A stretch of DNA of 64,000 bases from assembly GCA_965227295.1 (NCBI GenBank), contig OZ245742.1, forward strand, positions 4,864,001 to 4,928,000. The letters are read 5' to 3'. Numbering within the stretch: position 1 is the first letter of the stretch; each line of letters starts with the position of its first letter. Origin of the DNA: Leptonemataceae bacterium (GTDB taxonomy: Bacteria > Spirochaetota > Leptospiria > Leptospirales > Leptonemataceae). The notes under the pieces are model-generated. The model ran no database searches. It was given only the letters and a program-made list of their open reading frames with translations, and was not told the origin of the DNA. Shown in pieces: positions 2,649 to 42,749 of the stretch. Position numbers and translations under genes: made by a program.

Positions 2649-3401
2649 TTATCTCAAATGATCGATCACCCGGGTCAGTTCCGCGTTCAGCGCGGCCAGT
2701 GTAGGGGTGGGATTGTCCCGAAGGAAGAAATGGGCACCGGGAATCATGTGCAGTCGAAAATCCGCGGACGTGTGAATGCGCCAGGCCTGAAGCTCGGACC
2801 GAATCGCGCGCTCATCTTCATCCCCCCCGAAGACTACGAGGGGTACCGGCAGGGGCGGCTCCGACCGATACTCATGAGATTCAAATACGGTAAAATCCGC
2901 ACGCAGCAACGGTACGAATATATCCAAAAGCTCACGATCTTCCAGCACGGCCCGGGGCGTACCGCCGTAGCTTTCCAGGCTTTTGATAAAATCCGGTTCC
3001 GCCAGCGTGTGCATAATCGGAAAACGCTCGGGTGTCTGTGGGGCCTTGCGCCCGGAAACAATCAGCAGTTCCGGGAGGCGGCGTCCTTCCCGGCGCAATC
3101 TGCGGGTAATCTCAAAGGAAATCAGGCCACCCATGCTGTGACCGAAAAGCACGAACGGTCCTCCGACGGCTTCCAGAACGGGCACAAACTCATCGATGAT
3201 GCGGTTCAAATCAGGAATCGGCGATTCCTTGATCCGCGTCTGACGCCCGGGTAGTTCCACTGCCAGGACTTCTACTTCCGGAGGCATGCTGTCATGCCAG
3301 GATCGATAGAGAGTAGAGTTGCCGCCGGCAGGCGGAAAACAGAACAGGCGTACAAGCGCCTCAGGCCGTTCCTGATTACAAACAATCCACGGACTCTTCA
3401 T
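2649..3401 (-). CDS. Type II thioesterase (GrsT/RifR-like)
   Basis: LFCFPPAGG, ELPGR, GHSMG nucleophile, LRADF, GAHFF. Start placed at MKSPW (3401), just after the monooxygenase stop. Confidence 0.92.
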   Translation of the reverse strand: MKSPWIVCNQERPEALVRLFCFPPAGGNSTLYRSWHDSMPPEVEVLAVELPGRQTRIKESPIPDLNRIIDEFVPVLEAVGGPFVLFGHSMGGLISFEITRRLRREGRRLPELLIVSGRKAPQTPERFPIMHTLAEPDFIKSLESYGGTPRAVLEDRELLDIFVPLLRADFTVFESHEYRSEPPLPVPLVVFGGDEDERAIRSELQAWRIHTSADFRLHMIPGAHFFLRDNPTPTLAALNAELTRVIDHLR

Positions 3402-3443
3402 CGGCGACAGCCTTACTGCCGCCGATGAGGTGTGCATCCGTTT

Positions 3444-4949
3444 TTACGCGGCAGCCTCGGATTTTGTCCGGCGATTGCCCGAACGTTTCCTCTTCCGCTG
3501 CTTGTCGGACTCGCGCAGTTTTTCCATAACGCCTTCACCGGGCTCCAGGGGGCGATACTGAGTTTCCGGACTCGGCATCGGCCCACGAAGCAGGCCGAAA
3601 GTATAACCCAGGATACGGAAAAACACGGAGGGACGGAAGAGTCCGACCGGCGTGTGAATGAAATGCAGCACCCGGAAGAACTCATCGTAAACGGCGGAGT
3701 ATTGGGCGGAGAGTTTGTGAACCGCACCGACATACCAGTGCAGGATTGGAAGATAGAAGGGACGCTTGCCCTCCGTCTCCTTATAGCGGAAATCTTCCGC
3801 GGTGGCCAGAACCCACGGGATCATCGAGACGGTCCACGAGGCCCGACGAAAAAAGCGTTTCGTAATATTCTTCAGGCCACGGTTCAAGGAACGATCCAAT
3901 GCTCGCACGGCCATCGATCCCACACTCATGCCCTGACCGTAGATGGGGTTAAACGAGCAAAGTGCGTCCCCTACGGCGACAAAGCCGTTGGGCAGCCTGC
4001 ACTTATCGTAACGCATACGCCTGGAGGCGGGCATTTTATATGAGGCAAATCCTGTGATAGGCTTCGCTTTTTTGATGGTTTCGTAGATATCCGGTCGGGC
4101 AAGGGACTTCGCGTGCTCAAGATAGCTTTCCTCGGTCATGGAAGCGTGCGCGCCGTGGTAGCCGGTCATGGTGACAATCCAACGCTTCCGTCCCTCGGGG
4201 CCCGGCTCGATGTGATAGATATAACCGAGGCGGCAATCCGGTGATTTCGGATAGATCATCATGGCCGCCCAGTCGCGCTCGGATTTCGCCGGCTGCTCGT
4301 ACAGGCGGGTCGTATAACCGATGTCGATGCGTACGCGATCTTCTCCAGGATGTTGATAACCGAGATCCTCAAGCCAGCGCGGGAATTTGGAACCGCGACC
4401 GGAGGCATCGACCACGAGATCAGCATGCACTTGTTCTTCGCGCATGGGGTTGTGAGACCGAATCGTGACCCCGCTAATGTTCTTTCGCTGCGCATCAACA
4501 ATCAAATTCATGACGTCGTGTTCGTAGAGAATGCGTACGTTCGCGCAATCCTGGTTCAGTCGCTTGCGAACCATCCACTCTACGAGCGGGCGGCTTTGGA
4601 GATAGAAGTACATATGGTTCGGCTTGCGTAACTTCCACACACCATGGTGATACCAGGCAAGATCCGCCGCCGTATCAGCCCGAACCGCGCCCGCAGCTTC
4701 CATTTCATCGAAAATTCCAGGGAAGTAATCCTGGACGATCTCCCGCCCTTTATCAAGCATAACATGGACATGCCAGCCTTGGGGAGCGCCCCGGCGGGGA
4801 AACGGCCCCTCCGGCGCATGGTCTCGCTCTACAACTATGACTTCGTCGAAGCGAGGCGAGAGGGCCCTGGCTGCCAGGAGGCCGATCATACTACCGCCAA
4901 CAACGATGGCTCGATCTCCGAGGCGTTTACCGTTTTTATTCTGAATCAT
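3444..4949 (-). CDS. FAD-dependent monooxygenase, Lsd18/MonCI epoxidase-like family
   Basis: GGSMIG Rossmann start, ERD...RRGAPQGWHVH, DLVVDASGRGS, GDALCSFNPIYGQGMS. GAGG RBS upstream. Confidence 0.8.
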   Translation of the reverse strand: MIQNKNGKRLGDRAIVVGGSMIGLLAARALSPRFDEVIVVERDHAPEGPFPRRGAPQGWHVHVMLDKGREIVQDYFPGIFDEMEAAGAVRADTAADLAWYHHGVWKLRKPNHMYFYLQSRPLVEWMVRKRLNQDCANVRILYEHDVMNLIVDAQRKNISGVTIRSHNPMREEQVHADLVVDASGRGSKFPRWLEDLGYQHPGEDRVRIDIGYTTRLYEQPAKSERDWAAMMIYPKSPDCRLGYIYHIEPGPEGRKRWIVTMTGYHGAHASMTEESYLEHAKSLARPDIYETIKKAKPITGFASYKMPASRRMRYDKCRLPNGFVAVGDALCSFNPIYGQGMSVGSMAVRALDRSLNRGLKNITKRFFRRASWTVSMIPWVLATAEDFRYKETEGKRPFYLPILHWYVGAVHKLSAQYSAVYDEFFRVLHFIHTPVGLFRPSVFFRILGYTFGLLRGPMPSPETQYRPLEPGEGVMEKLRESDKQRKRKRSGNRRTKSEAAA

Positions 4950-5145
4950 GTGTTACCTCCGCACCGTCACTTAAGCCGATTCAACTACAAACCGGCACTA
5001 AGCTATTATTATGACGATTTTTTAGTTAATAGTACCGAAAATAAAGAAAATAATTTCCTTTTTTCGACACTTAAGGCGGAAGTTAGTCGAGCCTCATACT
5101 CGCAGAGATCTGAAATAGTACGAAAGCACTAGAAGGTCACGAGCA

Positions 5146-5508
5146 TCAATCCCCGACTTTTGCCAGGACACTTTTGACGGGGGCGGGAATCGGCGCCGGC
5201 TGATGAAATTCAACGCCGACCAGATAGGCGTCCTGCTTGCCGACGGTCCCCATGCTCTGCCAGGCAACCCGTGCCACAAAGTGCATCTTTTCCTCAAGGT
5301 CCTTGCCGAGGAGGACACCTTCGATGTCGGCCCCGATTTCCGTGTGAAGGACAGCGCCTTTACTTACGGGAACCACAGCACAAAGGCCGGTCTCGGAGAT
5401 ATCACCGAGCATGGCGAAGAATTCTTCACCGGCAATGTTTAAGTTCAGTTCCAGCTTGAACTTGTTCAGGGCGTTGGCATAAACGCGCGGGCTTCGCATG
5501 CGTAACAT
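5146..5508 (-). CDS. Stand-alone PilZ-domain protein (~120 aa)
   Basis: GGAGG RBS before ATG at 5508; RMRSPR (imperfect RxxxR), DISETG (D/NxSxxG), VAW, GVEF. Confidence 0.8.
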   Translation of the reverse strand: MLRMRSPRVYANALNKFKLELNLNIAGEEFFAMLGDISETGLCAVVPVSKGAVLHTEIGADIEGVLLGKDLEEKMHFVARVAWQSMGTVGKQDAYLVGVEFHQPAPIPAPVKSVLAKVGD

Positions 5509-5598
5509 GGGGCACCTCCGGTCGCCATGGCGTCGGCCCCGACTTGAAAACGCCACAAAAAACTGGACTGGAATCCGGAATCCCATGATTCCGGATTC

Positions 5599-6393
5599 AT
5601 GCGCGTAAATCCCGACCGCTCCGCCTACATCGTCTTGGACTCCGTAGATTCTACCAATCAGTATCTTATGCAGGCGGGGGTTCCCTCCGGGACCGTCTGT
5701 GTGGCGCGAACGCAGACCGCGGGCCGGGGACGACGGGGGAGACACTGGCATGCGCGCCCCGGAACGGCCGTTCTCTTCTCCACACTGCTGGTGCTGGAAT
5801 CCGACGTGTACCGGAACCTCGGCCCTCGCGTCGTCTGGTTTCCGTTGCTGGCCGGTCTCGCGGTCCTAAGAGTCGCTGAGCGAATTCTTACGGAATCCAC
5901 ATCCGCACGCAAACCGGATCTCTGGTTGAAATGGCCGAACGACCTCTATGCTGTTCGCGACGGCGTTCCCGGCAAGGCTGCCGGCATTCTGGTGGAGTCT
6001 TCGATCGGAAAAACTGAGAGTATGCGAGTCGTGATCGGCGCGGGTATTAACTTCAGCGACGTTCCTGAGGACGTGCCGGATGCGACGGTGCCGCCGGCGG
6101 CTTTGCTTTCCGAAAGCAGGGCGGAACAGCAAGAACCTTTTGAAATCTTCGTACCGCTCTACATTGCCGAATTCAACGCGCGACTGAGCCAGCTCTCCGG
6201 CGACACAAAGGTACTCCCGGACTTTCTCCGGGAGATCCGCGCCAGGGATTACCTCCGGAATCGCCTGGTTCGCACTGGTGGAGAAACGTTTGCCGCACGC
6301 GGGATCTCCGACACCGGGCGGCTGATCCTGGAAAAAGACGGAGTGCGCACGGAAACGGATGACGCCCCGGATCTTGAGATCCTGCCGGACTAA
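5599..6393 (+). CDS. birA: Biotin-[acetyl-CoA-carboxylase] ligase (no HTH, monofunctional)
   Basis: VDSTN, QTAGRGRRGRHW, LKWPND, KAAGILVE, GAGIN. Confidence 0.93.
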   Translation: MRVNPDRSAYIVLDSVDSTNQYLMQAGVPSGTVCVARTQTAGRGRRGRHWHARPGTAVLFSTLLVLESDVYRNLGPRVVWFPLLAGLAVLRVAERILTESTSARKPDLWLKWPNDLYAVRDGVPGKAAGILVESSIGKTESMRVVIGAGINFSDVPEDVPDATVPPAALLSESRAEQQEPFEIFVPLYIAEFNARLSQLSGDTKVLPDFLREIRARDYLRNRLVRTGGETFAARGISDTGRLILEKDGVRTETDDAPDLEILPD

Positions 6394-6399
6394 TAGATA

Positions 6400-9300
6400 C
6401 TACGAGCCGGGATCGTCGGCACCAAAGGCCAGCTGATGTGAGTGTATGGCCTGCTCCATGCCTTTCACGACGGACGCCCGCAATTCTGTGACATCACTGA
6501 TGCCGATGTCCAACAGACCGGATTCCTGCGCATCATGGTCGGCGCGGGACTTTCGATTGAAGTCTTCCATAAACTTCCGGTGATTCTCACGAGCGCCGTC
6601 CTCGTCCCCGTTTGCAAGAAGTTCACCATGCTTGCGACCTTCAAAAAGGTCGTATGCGGCCTGTCCGCCCATCACAGCAACCAGTGAGGAATTCAAGGCG
6701 ACATACGCAATGCCCGGTCGCAGAAACTTACTGAACGCATGAATCTGCCGTCCGCCATAGTTCTGATGGAGGACCACAGACACCACAGGAACGCGCCCCA
6801 GGATATTTACATCCAGCGACTCGGCACCAATAGCCTGAATACGCAAACGCTCCTGCCGCGTCCCGGGTACGAAGCCCGGGGCATTCGAAAGCATCACCAC
6901 CGGTAGCCCGCGGCGGTTCACCAGCTCCATGAACACACGGAACTTCTCGGTACCGGGTGCATCCGGGGCTCCTCCCATGATCTGCGGCTGATCCGCGAGT
7001 ATCGCCACCACGCGACCGTCGAGTCGGCCGAGGCCGGTTACCAACGCCGGCCCCGCCGCAGGGTCATTCATCTCCCGGTACATTTCAATGAAACTGCCGT
7101 TGTCGCAAATCGCTTCGATCACCGAACCAACGATGTCGTAGGCTTGATTGACCTCGACCGGAATGTTCGCCGGACCGGCCGGTCCGACAGGAGACCGACT
7201 TCCCAGGGGAGAAAGCAGGGCAATCAGGTTCTGAGCGTAGTCAAAAGCTCCGGCAAAAGACGAGGCGATAAATGCGGCGTACTGCCTTACGGCCTGGAGC
7301 TGTTCTCGCGTTTCGTTACCGGAGCGAACATACACCAGTGCATCCGCAGATGCATTCAGCTCCACGCGATGCAAGCCGTCGGGATGCGTCAGAATATTAA
7401 TGTGCACGCCGCGCGTATCGCGCAGAGTGTTCAGAAAATCCATGCGCGCTCTGAGCCCGGCACGATCCTCGAAGCGGTCCGGAGGGCCCATTTCCTGAAA
7501 CCAACGGCGACCGAATATTAAGATTCGCGCCGACTTTGTACGAGCGGCGATCTTCAACAACTCCCGCGCCCTGATTGCCGTGGCACTGGAGCGCACACCA
7601 AAACGACTGCGAGTTCCCAGTAAGAGCGTTCGTCGGCCTCCCAGGCGGGCAAAACCCCCGACCACCGCGCCGGCAGCGAAGTACTCATCCTTAAGAGACC
7701 AGAAATCGCCATCATCAACGTTTTGCTGGAGAATGCGCTCGTTGACGACAGATCGGCCGCGCAGGGCCGTGCGGGTATAAACCTCATCCGATTCCGCGGC
7801 GCCTCCCTTGCGCTCGATTCGATCGCGTTCCCGTTCAGCACCGAACAGGCGGTGAATGCGCCGGACGATGGCGATTAAATGTATCTTGTCTCGTGCAATG
7901 AAATCCGCAATGCCGGTCCACTTGCCCATGATCTTCGCGCCGCCGATTTCGTAGTTCGTCAGATCTTCTCCCGTGACTGAGCGAATGACGTTGGAACCGG
8001 TGAGGACGCGATACGATTCCGGTGAGTCCAGCAGTACCTGCAAGGTAGCCTGACTTGATCCGTAGACATCCAGGCCGGCGGAAGAGCCGATCCCCACTGC
8101 TACGGTGAAAAGCGGAGGCCGGTCCTCTGCGATGAACTCCGGAAATTGAAATTGCCGGCCAATTTCCGCGAGCATGTTCCGCAACGTTTCGTCGGCATTG
8201 CGCTCGGTATAACGCGCGAAAGTCTCCGCGTCCACGTTCTCGGCCAACAGAGTATTCATCATGAATCCCTGCGCCGCGCGATTCAGGGAGATGACTCCTT
8301 CACGAATGTTCGCTCCGGCCCCGTCGTTCCAGACGTAAAGAGGTCGTCCCAGGCGATACGCGATGTAGGCCGCCGCAACGTATTTCAGTCCCTCAAGATT
8401 TCCGGTGGCGCCGCCGCGCACGCGACTGTCTTTCATAAAGAAGATTGCCGGCAGGCCATCGATCTGGCCTTCAAAGATTGAGGCGCCCACGACCAGCCTC
8501 TGCTTCGCGCCGGTCTCAGGATTCACGACCTGCTGGTCGTCAATCGAAGGGACCAGGATCTCCTGCACGGAATCCACATCGTCGAAGCACTCGCGAACCC
8601 AGAAATCAATGGGCCATTTGTCCCGGGCTAACATTCGCTCAACCCGTGGGTCCTCGGGCGCAGGTAACCCGGAGTAGGGATTGCGAAAATCCACATCCAG
8701 AAGATGAAAACGGATCGTCTCGCCGTCCCCATGAAAACCAATCATGCGTCGGGAGTAGGTCCCGCTGGCCCGGGCGTGTACATCCAGGTGCAGGATGCTC
8801 GCCTCAATCTGAGTAATTTTCAGGAAGGGAAAATGCTCCGTAAGCTCACGATTCAGCTCCCAGTAATCAAAATCGCCACCGAAGCCGCTGAAGTCGAAGC
8901 GGGAATCGCCGACGTGCGTTAGAATCTCGACGCGATGACCGTTTTCTCTGGGAATTTCCAGGGGTGGATTCTTGGCGATAAAGCGGGCCGCAAAGAGTAC
9001 CTGCACCGCATCCATAATCGCTTTCCAGATCCGTCGGGCGAAGGGGGTTTCTGCGCCCTGCTCGGAAGCCGCGTCCACAGCCGCAAAGGAAACCAGGCGA
9101 CGATCGTCCCCATTCGCCAGAACGTAGAGATAGACGGTCTCCAGAGGCGAATAGAGCCGGCGGACCCGAGAAGATTGCTTCAGAAATTTTAACTTACTCT
9201 CCAGTTCACTTTGTACCCAGGCCGGCGCTTCCGACGGGATCAACTCGCCCGTCTCGTCCGACTCCAGGGATTCACTGAATCCCGTAACGAGAGACATGAC

Positions 9301-12300
9301 GTCTTCCACGTCGAATACGAGCAGAGGATGTAGTTTATCGAGTGCTTCTTTGTAGAGATCCGCGCCGGAGGTTTCATCGTCTTCCGCAAAGAGCTCCAGG
9401 GTCCGCATCTCCGCCACGTCATCCGGAATGCGATGTACCAGAGGACGCACATACTCCACGAGAGACTCGTCCAGCTCGGTCATCTCTTGCTGCATCAAGG
9501 CGGAAAGACATTCCCGGATTTCGGCGCCCTGCTCTCGGGATCGCGCGAGCATATGTACCAGGCACCGCGTAATGGCCCGCCGGGCTTTATCGTTTACATT
9601 CGCGAGATGTAGATAGAGATATGCGTGGGATAGAACAATGCGCTGGTCCTCCTGATCACGGACGTGCTTGCGATAATTATAGGCATCGAGGACCGGGGAG
9701 ATTACGTCCTGGAAATTCTGCGAAGGCTTGTAATCTCCCAATCGCTTTTGCGCCATGAACAGTTGGAGTTCGGCACGGTACGAGATATCCGCCACGACAA
9801 TCGGCGAGAACAGTCTACGCATTCGGGTATAGAACGAAAGGATCTGGATTGCCTGCTTTCGTAAGACAGAGCGCACCTCGTACTCATAGCGATCTTCGAT
9901 GATGTTCTCCAGGATTTCCAGAAAGCCGTCCGGCAAAGACGATGTCGGGATGTAACCGCGAATAACGGAGTCCATGATCTTCAGGCAACGCGAAAGGTTT
10001 CGCTGCGGGTATTCCGCGAAGATGCTCTCGATGTCCTTTTGGTATAAGGTCTCAACGAGACTGGTTGCCCGACGTCGACGCCGGCCGACTGCAGGCTGTT
10101 CCGTGACCGCAACAGCGTCAAAATCCTCCTCATCCTCCGGGTCCACAATAGCGAGGACCTCGCCTTCGGAAATACTGCGGCCCAGAATCCTGCCGTCGGA
10201 AGTCTTTCCGAGTTGAAGCTTCGAAATGTCGCCGTTCTCCAGGAGATAGGTCAGGCGACCGTCGCGGCCGGCGTAGATTGTCGTCTCCATCTTCATGGCA
10301 GAAACTACAATGAGCGGATCGCCTTTCCGGACTTCCGTTCCCACTGCGAGTTCTCCACCGGATGCCGAGCCGGCGAATTTTACGAAAGTCGCCTGAAATG
10401 GTGCGCGCACCAGGTCGAGGTTGTCTTCATCTCCGTCACCACCCTCGGCGCGAATCTTCATGCGATAGTAGTGAATCTTGTCGTCACTGTCTTTGATGCG
10501 CAGAACGGTGTATGAGGGTTTATCATCGGTGCGAATGCGCAGTGAGCGGTTCCCGAAACGAACCAGGTATTCGTCCTCCGCATCCGCGATGCGTCCCAGA
10601 CCGATGCGACCACTGTATTCGTCATTAATATAGACGAAGAAGTTACTCATGGAACGCTGAACGAAACGCACACGGTAGTGCGATGAACCGTATTCGACAA
10701 GAAAGACCTGTCGGACTTCTTCCTTGATGGGGAGTTGATCCGCCTGCTCCGGATCATGGCGCCGGGCTATTTCCCCTGCGCGCTCGCGGATACTACGCAC
10801 GTATTCCGTAAAGGCCCCGAAACGCACGGCCATAATCCGACGCCGATCATAGTCGCCGGGGTCCGATTCCTGGCCGCTTTCCAGTTCCGGATAGTCGCCG
10901 AGCAGGCGATTCGTATAGTCCGGCTCGCGAAACGCATCGTGCCGGACGATTCTTAGCAATTGGGCAACGTTTGTTAATGTGCCCTTGATATAGAGTTCCT
11001 GCAAAGCGCGCTCCAGGCGCATTAAGGCCTGGGCCCGATCACTGCCCCGGACGATCACCTTGCCGATCATAGGATCGTAGTACGGTAGAACTCGATCCCC
11101 CTGTCGAAAACCGAAATCGCAACGCACGCCGTTAAACGTAGGGAGGTCTAACCGGACAATCTTGCCGGGGGCCGGGGCATATCCATTCTCCGGATCCTCG
11201 GCGTAGATACGGCATTCAATAGCATGATCGATCCGGTCGAATTGAAAGCGCCGCTCGCGGATAACTTCCACCGGTAGATCACATCCGCGCCCGTCGAAAT
11301 AGCGCACCTGCCAGGAAGCCAGATCCACGCCCAGGGACTGGTCCGTTACGGCATATTCCACCTGAAGGCGAGTGTTCATTTCGAGGAAACCAAACTCCCC
11401 GGTGTCCGCGTCGTAGAGGAATTCCACGGTACCGGCTCCGCCACCCTCTGAATAACCGGAAATGTCCGCCATGTTCTCCGCGGCCTCGAGAAGAAGCCGG
11501 GAGCGATCGGGCTCCAGGAAGGAGTGTCCGCTTTCTTCTATGATCTTCTGGTTGCGGCGCTGCACGGCGCACTTACGGATTCCCACCGCGAGATTATTGA
11601 AAATCTGCACTTCGATGTGCACCGGCCGGGTGATCAGCTTTTCAAGATAATAGTCGTCGTTATCGTAGAGGTCGTTGCCGATGCGCTGGGCCGATTCCAC
11701 CGCCGCCGTCAGCTCCGACTCCCGAAAGACCGGTTGCATGCCTTTGCCACCCCCGCCCTGGTCCAGCTTGATCAATACCGGATATCCAATGCGCGCCGCC
11801 TCCTGTGCGGCGTGCTCAAGATCCCGGATTTTTTCGCTGCCTTCAAAAACAGGAACGTTGTTCTGCTTCGCGAGCGCGCGCGCATCGAGCTTGTTGCCAA
11901 CCTTGCGCATCACGGAGGCCGGCGGTCCCATGAACATGATATCTCGCTGAAATTCGCGGGAACACACTCCGAGAGCATCTACGAAATCGACATTCTCCGA
12001 CAGAAAACCGTATCCGGGATAAACGGCATTCGCACCAGAGAGAACGGCGGCCGCCGCAATCGTGGGAATGTGGGTGTAGTTGTTGGCATCGCCGATGAGC
12101 ACCGTCTCGTCGGCAAACTCGTACCAGGATTGGCCGATGTCGGGCTCCGTGACAACCGCCACGGAGGGAATCCCCTCTTCGTGCAATGCGAGAAAGAAGC
12201 GTTTCGCGATTTCGCCGCGGTTGGCGACCAGGACCTTGCTAAGCTTATGATCACGCCCACCGTCATCGTGACGGCGGCGCTCCCGCGTACGCCGGTTTAA

Positions 12301-18030: not shown

Positions 18031-18498
18031 TCAATGGTCTTCGAGAAACTCTCCGATACAGGGAAGAATGCCCAGCGCCGTAAAAAACGTCTGGGTATCG
18101 AAATTATGCCAGTCCTCTTCTAAACGACCTTCGTCATCCATGCGCCAGACGCCGGTCCCGGTAAACAATACGCTTCGATTTGCCGGTTCAATCTGGAGAA
18201 ACTTGCCGGTATGCGTCCCGCTAATCCAGTACTGCGCCGCGACTCGGTTTTCACCAACGCAGAGGGATTCATCGATCAACTCAATGGTGAGATCCGGGAA
18301 TGCATCCCGGTAGATTTTCACGAGCTTGCGAATGCCCGCATGGCTCACAATGCCGGCAGCATATGGATCGTGCCGGACATAATTCGGCGAATACAGTTCC
18401 TCCAGCGCGTCCGGATTCTTGCCGCTCCATACATCGGCCAGGATTCTGCGTACTGTATTCACAAGTTCGGTGGATGTGTGACTCTGGGTGGTAATCAT
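18031..18498 (-). CDS. SnoaL-like ester/polyketide cyclase (NTF2 fold)
   Basis: YRDAFPDL, GTHTGKF, W-x-NFD pattern; GGAG RBS before MITTQS at 18498; 28 bp after the thioesterase stop. Confidence 0.8.
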   Translation of the reverse strand: MITTQSHTSTELVNTVRRILADVWSGKNPDALEELYSPNYVRHDPYAAGIVSHAGIRKLVKIYRDAFPDLTIELIDESLCVGENRVAAQYWISGTHTGKFLQIEPANRSVLFTGTGVWRMDDEGRLEEDWHNFDTQTFFTALGILPCIGEFLEDH

Positions 18499-34887: not shown

Positions 34888-37800
34888 TGGGATTTCCTTT
34901 GTCCAAAAATTTTCAGTTCTGCTTGCAATAGTTGTTCGGCTTCATCGTCGGAGATAGAATCCAGTTGATCGGCGGAAAGCACGCCGGGTTTCCCGTTTTC
35001 GCTCCCGCCCGAACTGCCATTCGAATTCACTTCCGCCGACGGCGCCGCGGGTTTAACATCTGAAGTTTGTACATTAACGTCCGAGGCCTTCGATTCCGGA
35101 CGAGGGGGCGCGGTATTCGGAGCCGGTGCGGCAACCGGATTCGCGACGCTTTTCGCCTGCGGCCGCGCCGGTCGCCGGCGTTGTCCCGACTGCCGCGCCT
35201 TAAAGATATCAAGTTCGGCGAGGAGCATGGACTCGGCGTCTTCCTCGGACAGGGCGTCCACGTCTTCTCCGCGCAGAACCTCCGCCGCCGGGGAGGCCGG
35301 CAACGCGGGCGCAGCCACCAGGGCCGGGGCCTCCTCCGGGTCGGATGCGGCGCCTTCTGACTCGGGGCCGGGCAAGGTGAGCGCCTGTTCCAGGAGAAAG
35401 GTCGTCAGGGTATTCAGGTTGGGATAGTCGAAGGCCAGGGTCGACGGCAACGTCGTATCGAGTCCCTGCTGCAGGCGATTGCGAAACTCCACGGTCATCA
35501 GGGAGTCCATGCCGACGTCTTTAAAGCCCTTAGACGGATCCACGGGCTGATTGGGCTTCATGCCGAGAATCTGCCGCACTTGATCACGCAGATAACCGAG
35601 CAAGACTTCTTCGCGACGGTTGACGGGAGTGGACGCCAGGCTGTCCAAAATGCCCGCCGTAGACCCGGCGCCGCCCGCACCGGACTCCCCGCCGATTTCC
35701 GAAATTAGTTCGGAGAGATAGCCGGGAACGATACCGCCAGGAAGCATCTGCGCGAAGGTATCCCACTGCACGTGAATGACGCCGGCTTCCGCGGCCCCCG
35801 AATGGAGCAGATGCTCAAAGGCCTGCCAGCCGAGTTCGGGCGGCATAAAGCTCGTCCCTGTACGACGCAGGCGCGTACCTTCCTCGCTCGCAGCCAGATC
35901 GGCCACCATACCAATTTGCGCCCACGGTCCCCAATGAATACTGAGGCCCGGCAGTCCCATGCTACGGCGTTGATGAGCCAGCGCGTCCATAAAGGCATTG
36001 GCCGCGCTGTAGTTACTCTGAGCGGGAAGCCCGAGCAACGAAGCGATCGAAGAAAAGAAGACGAAGAAATCCAGTGACCGCCCCACGGTCATCTCGTGAA
36101 GTGCCTGTGAACCCGCGACCTTCGCCTGCATCACTTTTGCGTAGCGCTCCCAGGTTTGATCGCGAAAGAGACCGTCGTCGATGACACCGGCAGCATGAAC
36201 AATGCCGCGCAGGGCCGGCATGCCGGCATCCATGCTCGCGAGAATCTTGCGAACGTCTTCCGTCTGCGATACATCACCGCGCAGAACCTGAACGCGTGCG
36301 CCCGTTTCTTCTTCGATCGCACGGATCTTTTCTTTTACTTCTTCCCGGGGTTCCCGGCGCCCGGTGAGTACGATATTGCCCGCGCCTGACGAGGCCAGGC
36401 GTCGCGCAAAGAACAGACCCAGATCTCCGAGACCGCCGGTGATCAGGTAGGTTCCGTCCTCGCGGAAGCCCTCGAAGGTCTGAGCTGCAACCCTGGCTTG
36501 CTCATGGGAGACCACCAGCTTGCCGATGTGTTTGCCCCGGGCCATCTGGCGGAACGCATCGCGGACATGGGCGAAATCAAATTGCGTGAGCGGTTCTGTC
36601 GCAAGGTTGCCGTTTTCAAATTCCTCGCTCAAATGCAAGAGCATGGACTGAATCAGATCCGGTGTTTTGTGCGCAACGTCCATGAGATCGATGACGAAGT
36701 ACGAGACGCCCTTCTTGATGGCGGCGACGTCCTTGGCACTGAAAATATCCTTCTTGCCGATCTCCAAAAAGCGGCCGTTCTTGCGCAGAATTTCGATACC
36801 TTTTGGAATGAACTCGCCGGATAGCGAATTGAGGACGATGTCGATTCCTTCGCCGTTAGTGAGTTCCATGATCCGGGTCGCGAAGTCCGTGGAGCGAGAG
36901 TCAAAGATGCAGTCGGGCTCGACACCTATGGATTCGAGGTACTGACGTTTTTCGTCCGTACTGACCGTCGCGAAGATCTTCGCACCTTCCATGCGCGCCA
37001 CCTGGATCGCGGCCAGGCCGACCCCACCGGCCGCCGAATGAATCAAAATCCGATCGTCACCGGAAATTCGTGCCAGGTGATTTAGCGCGTAGTAACAAGT
37101 CAGAAAGACCAGCGGTACACCGGCGGCCGCTTCCAAATTCAACGTAGACGGTTTCCGGATGACCAGGTCCGCGGGAGTAACGACATAGGATGCGAAGCCC
37201 GGCTCCACACAGAGTCCCATCACCTGGTCGCCGACGCTCAGATCGATTACGTTCTCACCGACACTCGCAATACGACCGGCACACTCAATCCCGAACGGTA
37301 CGGGTCCTTCCGGATACATGTCCAGGGCGGAGAGCACGTCCCGGAAATTAAGTCCGGTGTATGCAACTTCGATCTCGACCTCGTCCGGTCCCGGCATTCG
37401 TCGCTGGAGCGGATGAACCGTAAGATTGTCTATCAATCCCCGACCGGTGGTTTCCAGAACGACCGGTTCCCGCGTCGCAGATGTCCGGCCGCCACTATCG
37501 CGCGCGACGGCTTTGCGATCCAGGCGTTGCACGTAACGGAGCCCTCCGCGGTACCCAACCTGGGAATCGCCTCCGGATGAGATCAGTTCTTCGAGAATGA
37601 GCCGGGCTCCGGCGACCGGCTCTTCGCGCGGGTCCAGGTCAAGACGCAGGGGGCGCCACTGCGGAAACTCCGATGCAATGACCGAGCCCATGCCCCAGAG
37701 TGTCGCGGCATGATAGTCCGGAACGGCTTCGGTGTGTACCGGCTGGGCGCCCCGGGTAACAATCATCAGACGAGCGTCTACGTCATACTCTGCCATGTTC

Positions 37801-40800
37801 TGCACGAGAGTGATGAGATCCTTACACAACGCTTCCTGGCGCGCCAGGTCCGTACTTTCGTCGCGTTCCGATAGGCCGCGTAAATATACAATACCGAAGG
37901 AGCCGCCGCGCGCGAGGTATGTTCGTGCAAGATCGATGGAACTGATCATTTGTATTTCGGTTCCGTCTTGCCCCAGCACACCGGCTACGGCTTCATCCAC
38001 CGCAGATGTCCCGGAACCGATGACGAGATAACCGTCGTAGGTCCCGGTCTGATGCTCGGGCCGTAGCGAAGCTTCCACCCACTTCGGTTCGTAGAGCCAG
38101 TCCCGAATGCCCTTCGGCGAAACGAGCATAAGATCCGGATGGCTCATGGCACGGAAGCGGAGATGACTCATTTCAATCAACACGGTACCATCGGCCCCAT
38201 AGAATCGGAGCGAGCCGTTCAGGTTCTGCCCGGTGGAGGCGTCCAGGCGGGCCTCAAGCCACGCCACGGAAGCTTTTTGCCAGCGACTGACCAGGCGTAT
38301 GCGATCAATGCTGCACGGTGTGTAGAGATGACCGGGAGCGGCATCTTCCCGGAACAGTGCCTGGAACAGAGCAAAGCCGAACGAGAACACCGTGGCGTCC
38401 GGCAAAGCCCCCGGTTCGAGTGAGGCGATGGCCTCCGCGTCTTTGGTGCGGATCTCTGTGACGGCAGCACGCATGCCTTCTTCGAAATGAACACCCGCGT
38501 CGGCCAGAGTATCGTAAAAATCGTTCGGCGCTATGGATTGCGAAAAGCCGCGAAACTTCGGTGCGATGTCTTCATCACGAACAGTTCCGGGAATCTCCAG
38601 CGATACCTTTCCATATAAATGGCGACGCCATTCGCCCCCGTCTTCACTTTCGATACGATCATATGCCCGAAAATCGTTCGCGGACAGCAGTAATTGAATC
38701 TCCACGGCTTCATCATCAAACAAGCCGACAGGCCGTTCGATCTGTAGATCCCGCAGAACCAGGGTCTTGTTGCTATCCTGTACGGTGCGCAGGTGCTCAT
38801 CCACTGCCAGTAGTGTCGCTTCCAGCGAGTCACCGGGCGTCAGCGTCATGATTTCAAAGAGGCTGTGTCCGAAGAGCGGAGCCGTATCGTTTTCTCGCAG
38901 CAGCAACGCCTGTACAATCGGTTCAGCGGCGGCAATTCTGCTTTGCAATAAGGGATGCGGCGTATTGCTGAGCGCCCGACCTTCGGCCGCGCCGCGCTTC
39001 GGCGGATCAATCCAGTAGCGCTCGCGTTGCCAGGCGTAGGCCGGGAGTCGCTGCGCGCGACCGCGACCGTCGAAGTAACGTTCCCAATCAATCGTGTAAC
39101 CGAGAGTGAAAAGTTTGCCCAGGTTCCCGAGCAAATGCAGATGCTCCGGTTGTTTGCGATTCAGCGAAGCCACCGTGTGACCCCGGGCCTCGGCGCGTTC
39201 CAGGCATTCGTTCACGTAACCGGAGAGCACCGGATGCGGGCCGATCTCAAGAAAGAGATCGTAGCCGGCGTCGATCAACACGTCGACGGCGGTGACGAAG
39301 AGTACCGAGCCGCGAATGTTCTGCCCCCAGTATTCGGCACCGTAATCTTCGTCGCCGGCAAGTTTACCGGTGACCGTAGAAACGATGGGCGTCTCCGGGG
39401 CCCGGGCCTGCAGTCCGAGCTTCTTCATCTCGGCGCTCATCTTCTCTTTGAACGGTTCCATCTGCGGACTGTGGAAGGCGTAGTTGTTCGGCAGCATCTT
39501 CTGGTAGATGCCGTCCTGTTCGATCTTCGCCAGGATCTCTTCCAGCGCCGCGGTTTCTCCGGAGAGCACGCTGGAGCCCGGCGAGTTCGCGACGCCGATT
39601 TCCACACGGCCCTCGTATCCTGCTAAGTATTTCTCACAAGCTTCTAACGTAAGTTGCACCGCGGCCATCTTACCGAGGCCGGTGGCCTCCTGCATGAGCC
39701 GCCCGCGATGATAGATGACCGTGACCGCATCTTCCAGACTCAGTTTGCCGGAGACGTGGGCGGCGGCCACTTCTCCGACGCTGTGCCCGGTGATGGCATC
39801 CGGCAGAACACCCCAGGACTTCCAGAGTTCGGCCAGGCCCACCTGTAAGGCGAAGATCGCGGGCTGGGCGATTTCGGTGTCCATGATGCGCGAGGCGCCT
39901 TCGTCTTTGTTCAGTTCGTCCAGGAGCGACCAGGTATCGTGGCCGGCCTTCTTTTGTGCCTGCTGCAAGAGCGCGTCGATCTCTTCGATCTTATTGCGAT
40001 AGATCGGCTCACGTTCGAAGAGTTCCCGGCCCATGGCGTACCACTGCGGACCCTGACCGGAAAACACAAAGGCCACTCGCGGACGACCATCGTGGAGGCG
40101 CAGCGGATTCAGCGATGAATCCCGGCGCAGGCGATCGAGGTCCACCTCCACGCCGCCGGAGGCCAGCTTCGACAGGGCGCGTTCGAGGGCAGCGGCCTCA
40201 TCACTTTCGGAACGCAAAGTGCTCGCCGCGACGCCTTTGGCCTGGTGTTCACTCAGACACTCTTCAATAGAACGTTCCACGATGGCGTGGGGCGAGACTT
40301 CCAGAAAAGCATCCACGTGATCGTCGACGATGGCATCCACCGCACTCTTAAACAGGACCGGCTCGCGGATGTTGTCCCACCAGTAACCGGCATCCAGGCG
40401 ATGGCCGTCATAGGCCATGCCCAACGTCGCCGAATAAAACGGAATCGCCGCGGACTGGAGCGAGAGATCCTTCAGTTGCTCAAGCAAACGATCCTTCAGC
40501 GGGTCCATGAGCGCGCAGTGGACGGCCGCCGGCGTATTCACCCGGCGTGCCAGGATGTCCCGGCCTTCGAGATCCCGAACGACCTCGTCCAGGGCGGTGA
40601 TGTCGCCGGAGAGCACGGTGGACTTCGGACTCGCTTCGATGGCGGCGACGAGTTTCCCGCCGTACTTCTCCACCTCGGCCTCCGCTTCGTGGAACGGCAG
40701 GCCGATCAACGCCATGCCGCCCTGCCCGCTGGTCTCGTGAACGAGTTTGCCCTGGGTAACAATGACCCGCACGGCATCGGCCAGGCTGATGGAGCCCGAG

Positions 40801-42749
40801 GCCCAGGCCGCCGCCGCTTCGCCGATGCTGTGCCCGACCACCGCGGCCGGTCGAATGCCGTAATGCTTCAGGAGTTCGGTCAGCGCGACCTGCATGGAAA
40901 AGATGGCCGGCCACATGACCTCAATGTCGCCGAGACGCGAGGAGCCTTCGTCCTTCTGAAGCTCCTCGATGAGCGACCAGCCCGCCAGGCTTTTGATTTC
41001 CCGGTCACATTCTTCTATAATAATGCGAAATACTTCCTCTCGTTCCAGCAGCTCGCGCCCCATGCCGATCCACTGAGAGCCCTGCCCGGAATAGACAAAG
41101 GCCACGCGGCGATCCGGACCGCGCTCGTACTCGTAGGCGTCCTCGCCTGCGACCAGGCCGGGACGCTCTTCTTCCGCCAGATAGGCCTGCAATTGTTCGA
41201 TGAGTTCCGCGCGATCACGACCGGCCACGGCGAGCCGGTGGCCGTGCAGGCTGCGCCGTGCACTGAGGGTGTAGCAGACATCGGCCAGGGGCAGGTCCTC
41301 GTTTTCTTCGAGCAGTGCCAGGTAACGCGAGGCCAGTTCACGCAGGGCCTCCGGGGCCCGGGCCGTCAAATTCAGTACAAAACGTCCGATGGAATCGTCC
41401 GCCGCCTGGCGGGACGGAGCCGGGGCCTCTTCCATCACCACGTGGGCGTTGGTCCCGCCGATGCCGAAGGAATTTACCGAGGCGAACCGCACCTGGGCAT
41501 CTCTGGGAAGTTCCATGACTTCCGTCGGGATGCGAATGGGCAGGCGATCCCAGGGGATGTTCGGATTGGGTTCTTTGAAGTGCAGCGAAGGCGGAACGAG
41601 CCCCCGATCCAGGACCAGGGCCGTTTTTACCAGGCCGCCGATTCCGGCGGCGGCCTCCATGTGACCGACGTTCGTTTTCACGGAGCCGATGAGCAGCGTA
41701 TCATCCTCCGGACGGTTTTCGCAGAGCACGTTCGACAGCGCGCGTACTTCCACCGGATCGCCGCGCTTCGTGCCGGTGCCGTGGGCCTCGACGTAGCGGA
41801 CCTCGCGCGGGTCCACGCCCGCGGTGCGATATGCCTGGCGCAGCATGGCCTCCTGGCCGCGCACGCCCGGCGTGCCGAAGGATCCACTGGTCCGCGCGTC
41901 GTTGTTCACGGCACTGCCGCGGACGACCGCGTAGATGGGATCGTTGTCGGCCACGGCGTCTTCCAGGGGCTTGAGTAAGATGAGTCCGGCACCTTCCGCC
42001 CGCACGTAACCGGAGCCGGTGGCGTCGCCGAAGCGACAGCGGCCGTCTTTGGCCATCATGCGTGACTGAGAGTAAGCGATGGTGATCTGCGGTTGCAGGA
42101 GCAGGTTCACGCCGCCGGCCAGGGCCATCTCGCAACCACGTTCCCGCAGACTCTGGCAGGCCAGGTGCACCGTTACCAGGGACGACGAACAGGCCGTGTC
42201 CACCGCCATGCTGGGGCCGTCCAGGCCCAGGGTAAACGAGAGCCGACCGGCCGCGGTATAGCGTCCGGTGCCCTGCGTACGATAGAAGTCCATGCCCGCG
42301 GGATCATTGAACAGAAAGTCTTCGTAGTCACTGCCCCACAGGCCGACGAACACACCGGTACGCCGTCCGCGAAAGTGCTCGGGAGTTTGTCCGCCGTCGT
42401 CAATGGCCTCCACCGCGGTTTCGAGCAGCAGACGCTGCTGCGGGTCCATGGCCTGGGCCTCCCGGGGCGTAATGCCGAAGTACGCGGCGTCGAAACCATC
42501 CACCTGATCCAGGAAGCCGCCCCATTTCGCGTAGGTCTTCCCGCGCTGGGGCTTCGGATCGTAGTAATCGTCGAGGTTCCAGCGACTGCCGGGAACCTCG
42601 GTGATGGCATCGACTTCGTTGGTCAGCAGCTTCCAGAAGGACGCGGGATCCGCGGCAGACCCGGGAAAGCGACAGCCGATGCCGATGATGGCGATCGGCT
42701 CGTCCGGATCGACTCGCTGGATTTGCGGGCTGTTTGCGTTACGTTCCAT
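34884..42749 (-). CDS. Type I modular PKS: KS-AT-AT-DH(atypical)-ER-KR-ACP
   Basis: KS DTACSSS/EAHGTGT/NVGHME; AT1 GHSIG...AAVHC; AT2 GHSVG...YAFHS; ER LIHSAAGGVG; KR TGGLGDLG, IDD, YSAAN; ACP GMDSL. Stop overlaps next start (ATGA). Confidence 0.95.
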   Translation of the reverse strand: MERNANSPQIQRVDPDEPIAIIGIGCRFPGSAADPASFWKLLTNEVDAITEVPGSRWNLDDYYDPKPQRGKTYAKWGGFLDQVDGFDAAYFGITPREAQAMDPQQRLLLETAVEAIDDGGQTPEHFRGRRTGVFVGLWGSDYEDFLFNDPAGMDFYRTQGTGRYTAAGRLSFTLGLDGPSMAVDTACSSSLVTVHLACQSLRERGCEMALAGGVNLLLQPQITIAYSQSRMMAKDGRCRFGDATGSGYVRAEGAGLILLKPLEDAVADNDPIYAVVRGSAVNNDARTSGSFGTPGVRGQEAMLRQAYRTAGVDPREVRYVEAHGTGTKRGDPVEVRALSNVLCENRPEDDTLLIGSVKTNVGHMEAAAGIGGLVKTALVLDRGLVPPSLHFKEPNPNIPWDRLPIRIPTEVMELPRDAQVRFASVNSFGIGGTNAHVVMEEAPAPSRQAADDSIGRFVLNLTARAPEALRELASRYLALLEENEDLPLADVCYTLSARRSLHGHRLAVAGRDRAELIEQLQAYLAEEERPGLVAGEDAYEYERGPDRRVAFVYSGQGSQWIGMGRELLEREEVFRIIIEECDREIKSLAGWSLIEELQKDEGSSRLGDIEVMWPAIFSMQVALTELLKHYGIRPAAVVGHSIGEAAAAWASGSISLADAVRVIVTQGKLVHETSGQGGMALIGLPFHEAEAEVEKYGGKLVAAIEASPKSTVLSGDITALDEVVRDLEGRDILARRVNTPAAVHCALMDPLKDRLLEQLKDLSLQSAAIPFYSATLGMAYDGHRLDAGYWWDNIREPVLFKSAVDAIVDDHVDAFLEVSPHAIVERSIEECLSEHQAKGVAASTLRSESDEAAALERALSKLASGGVEVDLDRLRRDSSLNPLRLHDGRPRVAFVFSGQGPQWYAMGRELFEREPIYRNKIEEIDALLQQAQKKAGHDTWSLLDELNKDEGASRIMDTEIAQPAIFALQVGLAELWKSWGVLPDAITGHSVGEVAAAHVSGKLSLEDAVTVIYHRGRLMQEATGLGKMAAVQLTLEACEKYLAGYEGRVEIGVANSPGSSVLSGETAALEEILAKIEQDGIYQKMLPNNYAFHSPQMEPFKEKMSAEMKKLGLQARAPETPIVSTVTGKLAGDEDYGAEYWGQNIRGSVLFVTAVDVLIDAGYDLFLEIGPHPVLSGYVNECLERAEARGHTVASLNRKQPEHLHLLGNLGKLFTLGYTIDWERYFDGRGRAQRLPAYAWQRERYWIDPPKRGAAEGRALSNTPHPLLQSRIAAAEPIVQALLLRENDTAPLFGHSLFEIMTLTPGDSLEATLLAVDEHLRTVQDSNKTLVLRDLQIERPVGLFDDEAVEIQLLLSANDFRAYDRIESEDGGEWRRHLYGKVSLEIPGTVRDEDIAPKFRGFSQSIAPNDFYDTLADAGVHFEEGMRAAVTEIRTKDAEAIASLEPGALPDATVFSFGFALFQALFREDAAPGHLYTPCSIDRIRLVSRWQKASVAWLEARLDASTGQNLNGSLRFYGADGTVLIEMSHLRFRAMSHPDLMLVSPKGIRDWLYEPKWVEASLRPEHQTGTYDGYLVIGSGTSAVDEAVAGVLGQDGTEIQMISSIDLARTYLARGGSFGIVYLRGLSERDESTDLARQEALCKDLITLVQNMAEYDVDARLMIVTRGAQPVHTEAVPDYHAATLWGMGSVIASEFPQWRPLRLDLDPREEPVAGARLILEELISSGGDSQVGYRGGLRYVQRLDRKAVARDSGGRTSATREPVVLETTGRGLIDNLTVHPLQRRMPGPDEVEIEVAYTGLNFRDVLSALDMYPEGPVPFGIECAGRIASVGENVIDLSVGDQVMGLCVEPGFASYVVTPADLVIRKPSTLNLEAAAGVPLVFLTCYYALNHLARISGDDRILIHSAAGGVGLAAIQVARMEGAKIFATVSTDEKRQYLESIGVEPDCIFDSRSTDFATRIMELTNGEGIDIVLNSLSGEFIPKGIEILRKNGRFLEIGKKDIFSAKDVAAIKKGVSYFVIDLMDVAHKTPDLIQSMLLHLSEEFENGNLATEPLTQFDFAHVRDAFRQMARGKHIGKLVVSHEQARVAAQTFEGFREDGTYLITGGLGDLGLFFARRLASSGAGNIVLTGRREPREEVKEKIRAIEEETGARVQVLRGDVSQTEDVRKILASMDAGMPALRGIVHAAGVIDDGLFRDQTWERYAKVMQAKVAGSQALHEMTVGRSLDFFVFFSSIASLLGLPAQSNYSAANAFMDALAHQRRSMGLPGLSIHWGPWAQIGMVADLAASEEGTRLRRTGTSFMPPELGWQAFEHLLHSGAAEAGVIHVQWDTFAQMLPGGIVPGYLSELISEIGGESGAGGAGSTAGILDSLASTPVNRREEVLLGYLRDQVRQILGMKPNQPVDPSKGFKDVGMDSLMTVEFRNRLQQGLDTTLPSTLAFDYPNLNTLTTFLLEQALTLPGPESEGAASDPEEAPALVAAPALPASPAAEVLRGEDVDALSEEDAESMLLAELDIFKARQSGQRRRPARPQAKSVANPVAAPAPNTAPPRPESKASDVNVQTSDVKPAAPSAEVNSNGSSGGSENGKPGVLSADQLDSISDDEAEQLLQAELKIFGQRKSQ

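Follow-up and report, generated by a model that had tools for sequence, protein, structure and literature searches.

To our knowledge, modular polyketide synthases (PKSs) as well as nonribosomal peptide synthetases (NRPSs) are thought to be regulated almost entirely at transcription, and we know of no natural products from the uncultured, large-genome relatives of Leptospira. In BcsA, a PilZ domain gates the enzyme, and in the glycopeptide NRPSs a degenerate condensation (C) domain, the X-domain (Protein Data Bank (PDB) entries 4tx2 and 4tx3), recruits the Oxy P450s. Adenylation (A) domains of NRPSs can be interrupted, the a8-a9 position being among the known sites; the inserts surveyed are methyltransferases, and "PilZ" occurs 0 times in the main text of that survey (PMC8341866). 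Two acyltransferase (AT) domains in a first module are described for ajudazol, aurafuron, chondramide and gulmirecin, with an N-terminal acyl carrier protein (ACP), and for Kid13 of kidamycin, without one (PMC10646177). In monensin biosynthesis, the substrate of MonCI is premonensin bound to a stand-alone carrier, MonACPX, and release of the product falls to a discrete thioesterase (TE), MonCII (PMC10560226). A catalytic Cys is found in the β-lactone TE of ObiF1 and the β-lactam TE of SulM (PMC11298585). Here we describe a cis-AT type I PKS cluster in which elements resembling all of these meet. It lies at 2649-42749 of a 64,000-nucleotide stretch of DNA (the window; positions 4,864,001 to 4,928,000 of contig OZ245742.1, assembly GCA_965227295.1) from a Leptonemataceae bacterium, on the minus strand except for birA, as judged from the list of open reading frames (ORFs) and Pfam (Table 1). 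Its third megasynthase, PKS3, ends in a degenerate C-A-carrier unit whose A domain is interrupted by two PilZ domains. The explanation of the whole that we prefer, and hold with about even confidence, is that this chromosomal cluster makes a short, reduced, epoxidised polyketide that is held on the terminal peptidyl carrier protein (PCP) and whose release is gated by cyclic di-GMP (c-di-GMP). We compared the genome holding the window (G000) with two congeners (G001 and G002) and two other members of the family (G008 and G019).

A first-pass annotation had presented the cluster as three cis-AT PKS genes, a TE and a SnoaL gene in one operon, followed by supply, signalling and tailoring genes. 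Every gene that it named is present where it was placed, but its account of the PKS genes needs correcting: PKS1 has two AT domains, and the third gene also carries Condensation and AMP-binding domains, two PilZ domains and a second carrier, and the reading as a short-tetraketide line had left out this entire C-A-PCP module, which is catalytically degenerate, together with its PilZ insert. Held against what an NRPS elongation module needs, the PKS3 end lacks the catalytic His of the C domain and the core motifs of the A domain and has the Ser of the PCP. The HHxxxDG motif of the condensation-like (C-like) domain reads H-T-V-I-L-D-E, the retained His aligning with the first His in a HMMER alignment to Txo2; across the five homologues the catalytic second-His position is T, S, S, R or M. 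The first His and the motif Asp are kept. In the degenerate adenylation (A-like) core, aligned to LgrA with HMMER, A3 has changed from TSGSTGKPKG to RAHDQVKPLG, A4 from FDxS to SSSV (Asp to Ser), the A7 Asp to Leu and the A10 Lys to Ser. A five-way alignment shows that the P-loop (A3) and the A7 Asp are missing in 5/5 homologues and that G019 alone still has the A10 Lys. By contrast, the PCP motif GGxS (FFD/E-x-GG-x-SL) has an invariant Ser in all five. One further domain of the protein is dead, an AT in which GQGAAG replaces GHSxG and for which Pfam gives no AT match at E 0.05. The domain architecture of PKS3 is the same in 4/4 homologues, and all five reading frames are intact although the homologues are only 31-55% identical, with about 1300 residues of the end kept in-frame. 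Between G000 and G001 the most conserved domains of PKS3 are PilZ1 (79%), PCP (77%), the ketosynthase (KS; 72%) and the ketoreductase (KR; 70%), and the least conserved are the A-like core (49%) and the C-like domain (43%). We read the C-A-PCP unit as being under selection, though not for C or A catalysis.

The PilZ pair occupies a defined place within this unit. A fragment of the A region (862 aa, from residue 2386 of PKS3) aligns to LgrA over fragment residues 1-462 and 671-821, and the PilZ pair fills about 208 residues between A8 and A9 of the A sub-domain. This is the same a8-a9 sub-domain site as in described interrupted A domains (families 1-7; Lundy, Mori, Garneau-Tsodikova 2020), in which, however, the known inserts are catalytic methyltransferases, whereas the insert of PKS3 is a PilZ pair in a dead A domain. 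PilZ1 has both receptor motifs (RIVDR and DVSPGG), with RxxxR kept in 4/5 and DxSxxG in 5/5 homologues; PilZ2 has RIPIR but EISTTG, and thus only part of the c-di-GMP receptor signature. An AlphaFold2 (AF2) model of the segment shows two β-barrels, each followed by a long helix, and its top Foldseek matches are two-domain c-di-GMP switches, namely PlzA of Borreliella (E 1.4e-9), MotI, YcgR and MrkH, with the single PilZ domains of Alg44 and of CeSA cellulose synthase (4i86) at TM 0.71-0.75. The pair shares RxxxR, DxSxxG and the fold with BcsA, Alg44, YcgR, MotI and PlzA, and, like the PilZ domain of BcsA, it is joined within one protein to a processive biosynthetic enzyme; it differs in being embedded in an NRPS-type domain of a PKS line and in the degenerate second motif of PilZ2, and c-di-GMP binding is predicted. 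The genome encodes 13 GGDEF proteins.

PilZ insertion at A8-A9 is a recurring design that exists beyond the host lineage, because a metagenomic NRPS (P0096; 4049 aa, three modules and a TE) carries one canonical PilZ domain (RRHVR ... NLSVGG) at the same site of its first A domain. That A domain is catalytically intact, and P0096 offers an independent, possibly active form of the PilZ-interrupted A domain. Our wide protein searches for PilZ-bearing relatives were dominated by giant NRPSs, so the family size is a lower bound: PF07238 is present in at least three proteins (3 of the 120 matches listed), and at least three representatives besides the query, among 150 matches listed, match the whole segment in one stretch. 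Literature searches pairing PilZ with NRPS adenylation domains, or with PKS and c-di-GMP, returned no PilZ-bearing megasynthase, judged by title and abstract; among the papers listed that pair PilZ, PKS and c-di-GMP, all concern regulation in Dickeya or Streptomyces by title. The C-like domain resembles the X-domain in that both are C-type domains with a mutated HHxxxDG beside the last carrier and with oxygenases acting in trans, and recruitment by the C-like domain is putative. The oxygenase here is a flavoenzyme, however, and X-domain kinship was rejected because the C-like domain is no closer to 4tx2 (E 9.5e-14) than to generic C domains (Txo2, E 9e-27).

The oxygenase in question had been annotated as a flavin adenine dinucleotide (FAD) monooxygenase. 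The FAD enzyme and an oxidation step stand, and the assignment can be refined to a homologue of the MonCI/Lsd18 epoxidases, with matches to MonCI (E 9e-59) and Lsd18/LasC (E 2e-56) over residues 13-390. It is kept in G001, G002 and G019 at 41-59% identity. The cluster thus shares with monensin and lasalocid an epoxidase of this type, an extra terminal carrier and a discrete releasing TE like MonCII. It departs from them in three respects: the chain is predicted to be short and to have one or two olefins, where theirs is a polyene; instead of a free ACP the carrier is a PCP that follows dead C and A domains in the same protein; and the TE has a Cys; a MonB/Lsd19-like hydrolase was not identified in the cluster by sequence and fold searches. 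Both TEs of the cluster are type-II-like, their nearest PDB entries being RedJ and RifR, and they differ in the nucleophile. The release TE, which is coupled to PKS3, has a Cys (GHCMG in 5/5 homologues), and the distal editing TE a Ser (GHSMG in 3/3). The release TE has a weak sequence match to ObiF1 (E 1e-7) and resembles the TEs of ObiF1 and SulM in having Cys for Ser and a substrate predicted to carry a β-hydroxyl. The SnoaL-fold protein has database homologues of 154-155 aa and an AF2 model with pLDDT 83, and its nearest Foldseek matches are SnoaL2, AclR, IdmH and ChaU; its gene is present in G000, G001 and G008. A role for this protein as an epoxide-opening cyclase was considered and was not singled out by sequence or fold searches, so that the protein is no more than a candidate epoxide-opening partner.

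Upstream of these steps, the five biosynthetic genes from PKS1 to the SnoaL gene overlap or lie no more than 28 nt apart: PKS1 and PKS2 overlap by 4 nt, PKS2 and PKS3 are separated by 10 nt, and the start of the release TE overlaps the stop of PKS3. Promoter and terminator scans were at chance level (1 promoter-like site versus 1.0 expected, and 8 versus 8.6 expected). In each of the three KS domains the Cys and the two His are in place (DTACSSS, DVGCASS and NSSCASS, with HGTGT and GH motifs further on); in PKS1 they are Cys184 and two His, read by eye. A motif scan of the three proteins, with which Pfam agrees, found four active ATs (GHSxG) and three ACPs with the DSL serine, and docking-like tails, acidic at the C terminus and coiled-coil at the N terminus, are visible by eye. 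No N-terminal ACP or docking element was found in PKS1. Its AT1 has GHSIG, but the conserved carboxylate-binding Arg is replaced by Gln (HMMER alignment to the tylactone synthase AT, 8jpu), and the specificity motif is AAVH rather than HAFH or YASH. Because Gln replaces the Arg that holds the extender carboxylate, and because of the odd AAVH motif, AT1 is best read as a starter-loading AT, in keeping with the starter of unspecified identity that the first-pass annotation had proposed. G002 and G019 share these features; G001 has instead a FASH AT with the Arg. The extender ATs have YAFH (PKS1), FASH (PKS2) and YAFH (PKS3), and under the HAFH/YASH rule that links AT sequence to malonyl or methylmalonyl extenders this fits the order malonyl, methylmalonyl, malonyl, as annotated. 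PKS1 has an enoylreductase (ER) with GGVG and a KR with IDD, and PKS2 a canonical dehydratase (DH) motif, HIIGGALVVP, and a KR with LDD. The dehydratase of PKS1 is divergent, HxxxGxxxxP being absent in 4/4 homologues and Pfam PS-DH matching only at E 2e-7, although the KS-AT-AT-...-ER-KR-ACP layout is kept in 4/4 homologues. In the PDB, PKS1 is matched best by an iterative enzyme, mycocerosic acid synthase (MAS; 9d2y, E 3e-300). The last module is KS-AT-KR without DH in 5/5 homologues and at least one DH-KR module lies upstream of it in all four complete loci, and therefore a β-hydroxy, γ,δ-unsaturated thioester is predicted as the shared end product of the line.

Two ATs, one for the starter and one for an extender, also begin the tandem-AT lines described in PMC10646177, and PKS1, without an N-terminal ACP, is in that respect like Kid13. 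The KS-AT linkers of the cluster are CurL-like, and the best named matches include myxobacteria. What sets the cluster apart is that its KS-AT didomains are only 37-50% identical to named proteins, that its host is a spirochaete, that the first module of PKS1 is of the fully reducing type and that AT1 of G001 is a normal, extender-type AT. The description of the cluster as myxobacterial in style is apt only in a loose sense: tandem-AT starts are reported mostly from myxobacteria (PMC10646177), but by KS-AT identity the myxobacteria (46-50%) are barely nearer than the actinomycetes (37-49%). Nothing named is a close match to the cluster, the nearest outside didomain being a metagenome protein at no more than 51% identity and the named matches being Archangium (50%), Allokutzneria (49%), Sorangium (46-47%), cyanobacteria (43-49%) and Streptomyces (37-47%). 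Only the three KS domains of the cluster are of PKS type in the genome; of eight PF00109 matches, the other five are at E 2e-6 or weaker, in ORFs of 290-433 aa. The window holds no phosphopantetheinyl transferase (PPTase), as annotated, and the genome encodes an Sfp-type enzyme (246 aa, ACPS and AASDHPPT_N) about 440 kb away, plus AcpS.

Precursor supply and signalling had been assigned to the cluster, and because the carboxylase, the kinase-phosphatase and the epoxidase are conserved with the PKS genes across genera, our comparison supports that assignment. The single-chain acyl-CoA carboxylase is kept in G001, G002 and G019 at 56-60% identity. Its biotin carboxylase (BC) domain is closest to bacterial BC/MCC/PC and its carboxyltransferase (CT) domain to PccB/AccD5 (E 2e-38), whereas the single-chain LCC 4rcn scores only 9e-10. 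The middle of about 700 aa (residues ~720-1430) has no Pfam match at E 0.05 besides the start of the CT and no PDB sequence match. The carboxylase is not unique, because several Atlas clusters of 1.8-2.0 kaa share its architecture, some of them labelled with the eukaryotic ACC central region. The kinase-GAF-PP2C protein adjoins the cluster in G001, G002, G019 and G008 (42-66% identity), and its middle, of about 870 aa, matches no Pfam family at E 0.05. The genes for birA, the small PilZ protein and the type II TE (TEII) are kept in G001 and G002. The small PilZ protein has DISETG and lacks a strict RxxxR, and only its residues 81-200 are covered by the homologue in G002. The PAS kinase adjoins the TEII gene in G001 and G002 as well (56-58% identity); this synteny is confined to the genus, with no match in the G019 locus.

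Together these features suggest how the cluster might work. Three docking-linked cis-AT PKS proteins would build a short, partly reduced polyketide: AT1 would load a non-carboxylated starter, module 1 would add a malonyl-type unit and reduce it, module 2 would add a methylmalonyl-type unit and leave an α-methyl enoyl group, and module 3 would add a malonyl-type unit and leave a β-hydroxyl. The single-chain carboxylase, with its own biotin ligase, would supply the extender units. The pseudo-NRPS end, with its PilZ pair, would then serve as a holding or recruitment platform rather than as a module that adds an amino acid. The finished chain would sit on, or be presented by, the terminal PCP, where the MonCI-type epoxidase could oxidise an olefin, and the discrete Cys-TE would release the product, possibly, given the β-hydroxyl, as a β-lactone. 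Binding of c-di-GMP to the PilZ pair may shift the way in which the A sub-domain positions the PCP and so gate tailoring and release post-translationally, with further signal input from the kinase-GAF-PP2C protein and the small PilZ protein. The most specific form of this proposal, that c-di-GMP on the PilZ pair of the dead A domain repositions the last carrier and thereby decides epoxidation and Cys-TE release of an epoxy-β-lactone-type molecule, is one that we put forward tentatively, as possible but doubtful.

Several observations weigh against the proposal. With the C domain inactive, the move of the chain from ACP3 onto the PCP is a weak point, although the Cys-TE may act as a transthioesterase. 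In the second motif of PilZ2 the homologues carry E, Q or S where D/N is canonical, the RxxxR of PilZ1 is without its first Arg in one homologue, and the model of the PilZ insert is of moderate quality (pLDDT 70, pTM 0.49, 6 sequences). The release TE is discrete and type-II-like, with His-Cys-Met instead of the Gln-Cys-Asn of SulTE, and it would act on a polyketide, which separates it from both ObiF1-TE and SulM-TE. In the Foldseek search with the SnoaL protein, limonene epoxide hydrolases come no higher than ranks 35 and 49, Lsd19/MonB are absent from the matches listed, and the SnoaL gene was not found in the cluster loci of G002 and G019. Full reduction by module 1 is uncertain because the DH of PKS1 has no HxxxGxxxxP, and chain length is uncertain because PKS1 resembles the iterative synthase MAS; the colinear tetraketide of the first-pass annotation is therefore unsafe as a result and remains a reasonable guess.

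The resemblance to MAS also opens a different account, in which the cluster makes a cell-envelope lipid instead of a small metabolite that diffuses away: iteration by PKS1 would yield a long chain, which would receive a functionalised head from the later modules and be passed to an acceptor by the C-like domain or the TE. PKS1 has the same fully reducing domain set as MAS, the dedicated carboxylase and biotin ligase recall mycobacterial lipid pathways, Pfam finds no exporter gene in the cluster, and c-di-GMP typically controls surface and biofilm traits. Yet the MAS score largely reflects shared domain content, the docking-linked layout of one module per protein and the shuffling of modules among relatives are typical of collinear lines, and we know of neither a MonCI-type epoxidase nor a Cys-TE in lipid pathways, so that we consider a lipid product improbable, though with a real share of the probability. 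Two other accounts concern the pseudo-NRPS end itself and turn on how its degeneracy is read. Were the C-A-PCP module active with non-canonical residues, or its PCP loaded in trans, the product would be a polyketide-peptide hybrid and the PilZ pair would regulate elongation. The Pfam matches of the dead domains are still strong (Condensation E 1e-44, AMP-binding E 3e-41), the C motif still has its first His and its Asp and the PCP its Ser, the PilZ domain of P0096 sits in an intact and presumably active A domain, and 17 other AMP-binding matches in the genome could in principle load the PCP in trans. But a search of the genome with an NRPS-type A query gave no further match, the cluster contains no AMP-binding gene, the C-like domain and the A-like core are the fastest-evolving folded parts of the protein, and the loss of the P-loop, the A4 and A7 Asp, the A10 Lys (in 4/5) and the catalytic His of the C domain (in 5/5) makes an active module unlikely. 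The same losses, and the low conservation of the C-like domain and A-like core, might instead mark the end as a functionless relic, with the TE taking the chain directly from ACP3 and the PilZ domains as passengers. We find this quite unlikely, since a relic would hardly stay in-frame over so long a stretch in five such divergent homologues, with PilZ1, the A sub-domain and the PCP as conserved as KS and KR and with the c-di-GMP motifs and the PCP Ser kept.

Recent import of the cluster from a myxobacterium or an actinomycete, or a chimeric assembly, would be another reason for finding a modular PKS in this host. Composition lends it something: the GC content is 58.0% in the cluster and 59.8% in the genome, which puts the cluster at the 3rd percentile of 40-kb windows, the cluster has a tetranucleotide distance of 0.134 against 0.069 ± 0.025 (2.6 standard deviations above the mean), and GC at third codon positions (GC3) is 0.61-0.71 in the cluster genes and 0.79-0.80 in flanking genes, the PAS kinase being host-like at 0.79. 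The distribution is also patchy. However, the GC3 values fall in the 17th-32nd percentile of long ORFs, so that the composition of the cluster is mildly atypical, not extreme. The window contains no tRNA gene, and a Pfam scan of flanking ORFs brought up neither transposases nor integrases. The genome is a single 5.94-Mb contig (93.6% complete), and because two congeners share the synteny of the cluster with its PAS-kinase flank and two DNA sequencing runs of one study contain 98-100% of sampled window words, assembly chimerism is very unlikely; a third DNA run, of the same species label and another study, contains next to no sampled words, and no RNA run was among those listed for this DNA. 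Since the FlaA sheath-protein family PF04620 has four matches in the genome against none in 14 control genomes, and since the same-genus and same-family carriers are labelled Leptospirales or Leptospiraceae, the host is, on these markers, a spirochaete of the order Leptospirales. The first-pass annotation had called it a probable spirochaete while allowing for a myxobacterial or chimeric contig, and the contig is very unlikely to be either. With the outside PKSs at most 51% identical and the PilZ hallmark found, with two peptide patterns, only in Leptospirales-type metagenome-assembled genomes (MAGs), recent import from another phylum is not likely, and we regard the combined alternative of import or chimera as extremely improbable, whereas exchange within the family is likely.

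Of the family's 42 genomes, five have the PilZ-hallmark cluster; they belong to 3 of its 21 genera and are the largest in size (5.9-7.0 Mb). A search of 185,579 species genomes with two peptide patterns turned up the hallmark in four loci only, all in Leptospirales-type MAGs. On a quick IQ-TREE RpoB tree of 30 of the 42 family genomes, the carriers of genus g1 are monophyletic and G008 and G019 each stand beside a non-carrier (support 99), so that the tree needs at least three gains or losses of the cluster. Over the C-A-PCP unit, G001 and G002 are only 35% identical despite near-identical RpoB, against 55% for G000 and G001 and 40% for G002 and G019. G002 has four PKS genes, and the FASH KS-AT, which G000 and G001 have in PKS2, belongs to the last protein of the line in G002, G019 and G008. 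Because modules are shuffled and the cluster gene tree conflicts with the species tree, it is likely that members of the family have swapped or replaced cluster versions, in part at one and the same locus. The G001 and G002 versions differ in PKS gene number and in the presence of SnoaL, and both adjoin the same PAS-kinase flank, which suggests that this locus is a replacement hot spot. Modular PKSs had been held to be foreign to spirochaetes, and this does not stand: type I PKS KS-AT didomains are present in 21 of 400 other sampled genomes of the phylum, with 0 of 75 in the Leptospira-like family f2. Spirochaete families with other PKSs are f35, f46, f34, f7, f36, f42, f45 and f47, with ORFs of up to 3988 aa and a best identity to the cluster of 41%. 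A literature search on polyketide synthases in Leptospiraceae found nothing relevant, and spirochaete PKSs appear under-described.

If the gating proposal is true, this would be the first assembly line under allosteric control by a nucleotide second messenger, and it would reveal a new use for pseudo-enzyme domains in megasynthases and a natural switch that engineers could reuse. The locus in any case indicates that a whole C-A module can persist as a conserved pseudo-enzyme. The combination of a polyether-type epoxidase and a rare Cys-TE acting on a short chain points to an undescribed reactive small molecule, and the five cluster versions, with their shuffled modules and in part a single locus, offer a compact natural experiment in assembly-line evolution.

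Table 1. Features of the PKS cluster and its flank, with positions in the window. A-like, degenerate adenylation; BCCP, biotin carboxyl carrier protein; other abbreviations as in the text.
Feature	Position	Strand	Description and evidence
PKS1	34884-42749	-	2621 aa, KS-AT1-AT2-DH(divergent)-ER-KR-ACP (Pfam)
AT1 of PKS1	40146-41099	-	starter-type acyltransferase (predicted)
PKS2	29191-34887	-	1898 aa, KS-AT-DH-KR-ACP (Pfam)
PKS3 (third megasynthase)	19437-29180	-	3247 aa, KS-(dead AT)-AT-KR-ACP-C-like-A-like(PilZ-PilZ)-PCP (Pfam)
C-like domain of PKS3	22164-23399	-	
A-like core of PKS3	20922-22025	-	degenerate adenylation domain with poly-Lys insertion
Two PilZ domains in A sub-domain of PKS3	20016-20636	-	Pfam PilZ E 7e-16, two stretches
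Terminal PCP of PKS3	19578-19766	-	Pfam PP-binding
Discrete release TE	18527-19444 (ORF up to 19513; likely start Met24)	-	Pfam Thioesterase E 2e-37
SnoaL-fold protein	18031-18498 (ORF up to 18570)	-	155 aa; Pfam SnoaL
Signalling protein	12562-17817	-	1751 aa, Ser/Thr kinase-AAA_16-GAF-PP2C (SpoIIE) (Pfam)
Single-chain acyl-CoA carboxylase	6400-12384	-	1994 aa, BC-BCCP-(~700 aa no match)-CT (Pfam)
birA	5599-6393	+	biotin-protein ligase without repressor domain; TIGR00121 106 bits versus cut-off 83
Small PilZ protein	5146-5751	-	Pfam PilZ E 5e-7; conserved part from ~Met82 (~5508)
MonCI/Lsd18-type flavin epoxidase homologue	3444-4949	-	PDB sequence matches
Type II (editing) TE	2649-3437	-	Ser nucleophile; Pfam Thioesterase E 6e-47
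PAS histidine kinase, cluster flank	1234-2607	-	Pfam

Beyond PKS1, the window holds several genes on the other side of the cluster. The stretch 43201-43684 holds a small regulator of the slr1659 superfamily (NF047705, 110 bits versus a cut-off of 100), transcribed divergently from PKS1, and after it a 17-bp GC-rich hairpin at 43646-43684; the cluster loci of the relatives showed no such regulator alongside. Just upstream of the cluster, at 44234-46243 (+), lies a gene for a PMT_2/ArnT-like membrane glycosyltransferase of 669 aa, and no such gene was found adjoining the cluster in the relatives. Six co-directional ORFs at 51781-57638 (-) include a radical SAM enzyme (55543-56619), whose best NCBIfam matches fall well short of the respective cut-offs, together with five ORFs of 128-560 aa that match no Pfam or NCBIfam family; this group may be a second maturation or biosynthetic cassette. 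A hybrid sensor of 1064 aa at 58159-61353 (+) combines HisKA-HATPase, receiver and PP2C (SpoIIE) domains, and PP2C fusions recur in the genome, in the 1751-aa protein of the cluster and in a PP2C-TPR gene adjoining the Sfp-type PPTase. At 61354-63429 (-), a full-length homologue of neutral/alkaline ceramidase (Pfam E 1.6e-172; NCBIfam ceramidase_neut 501 bits, short of its cut-off of 1200) suggests that the host spirochaete may turn over sphingolipids.

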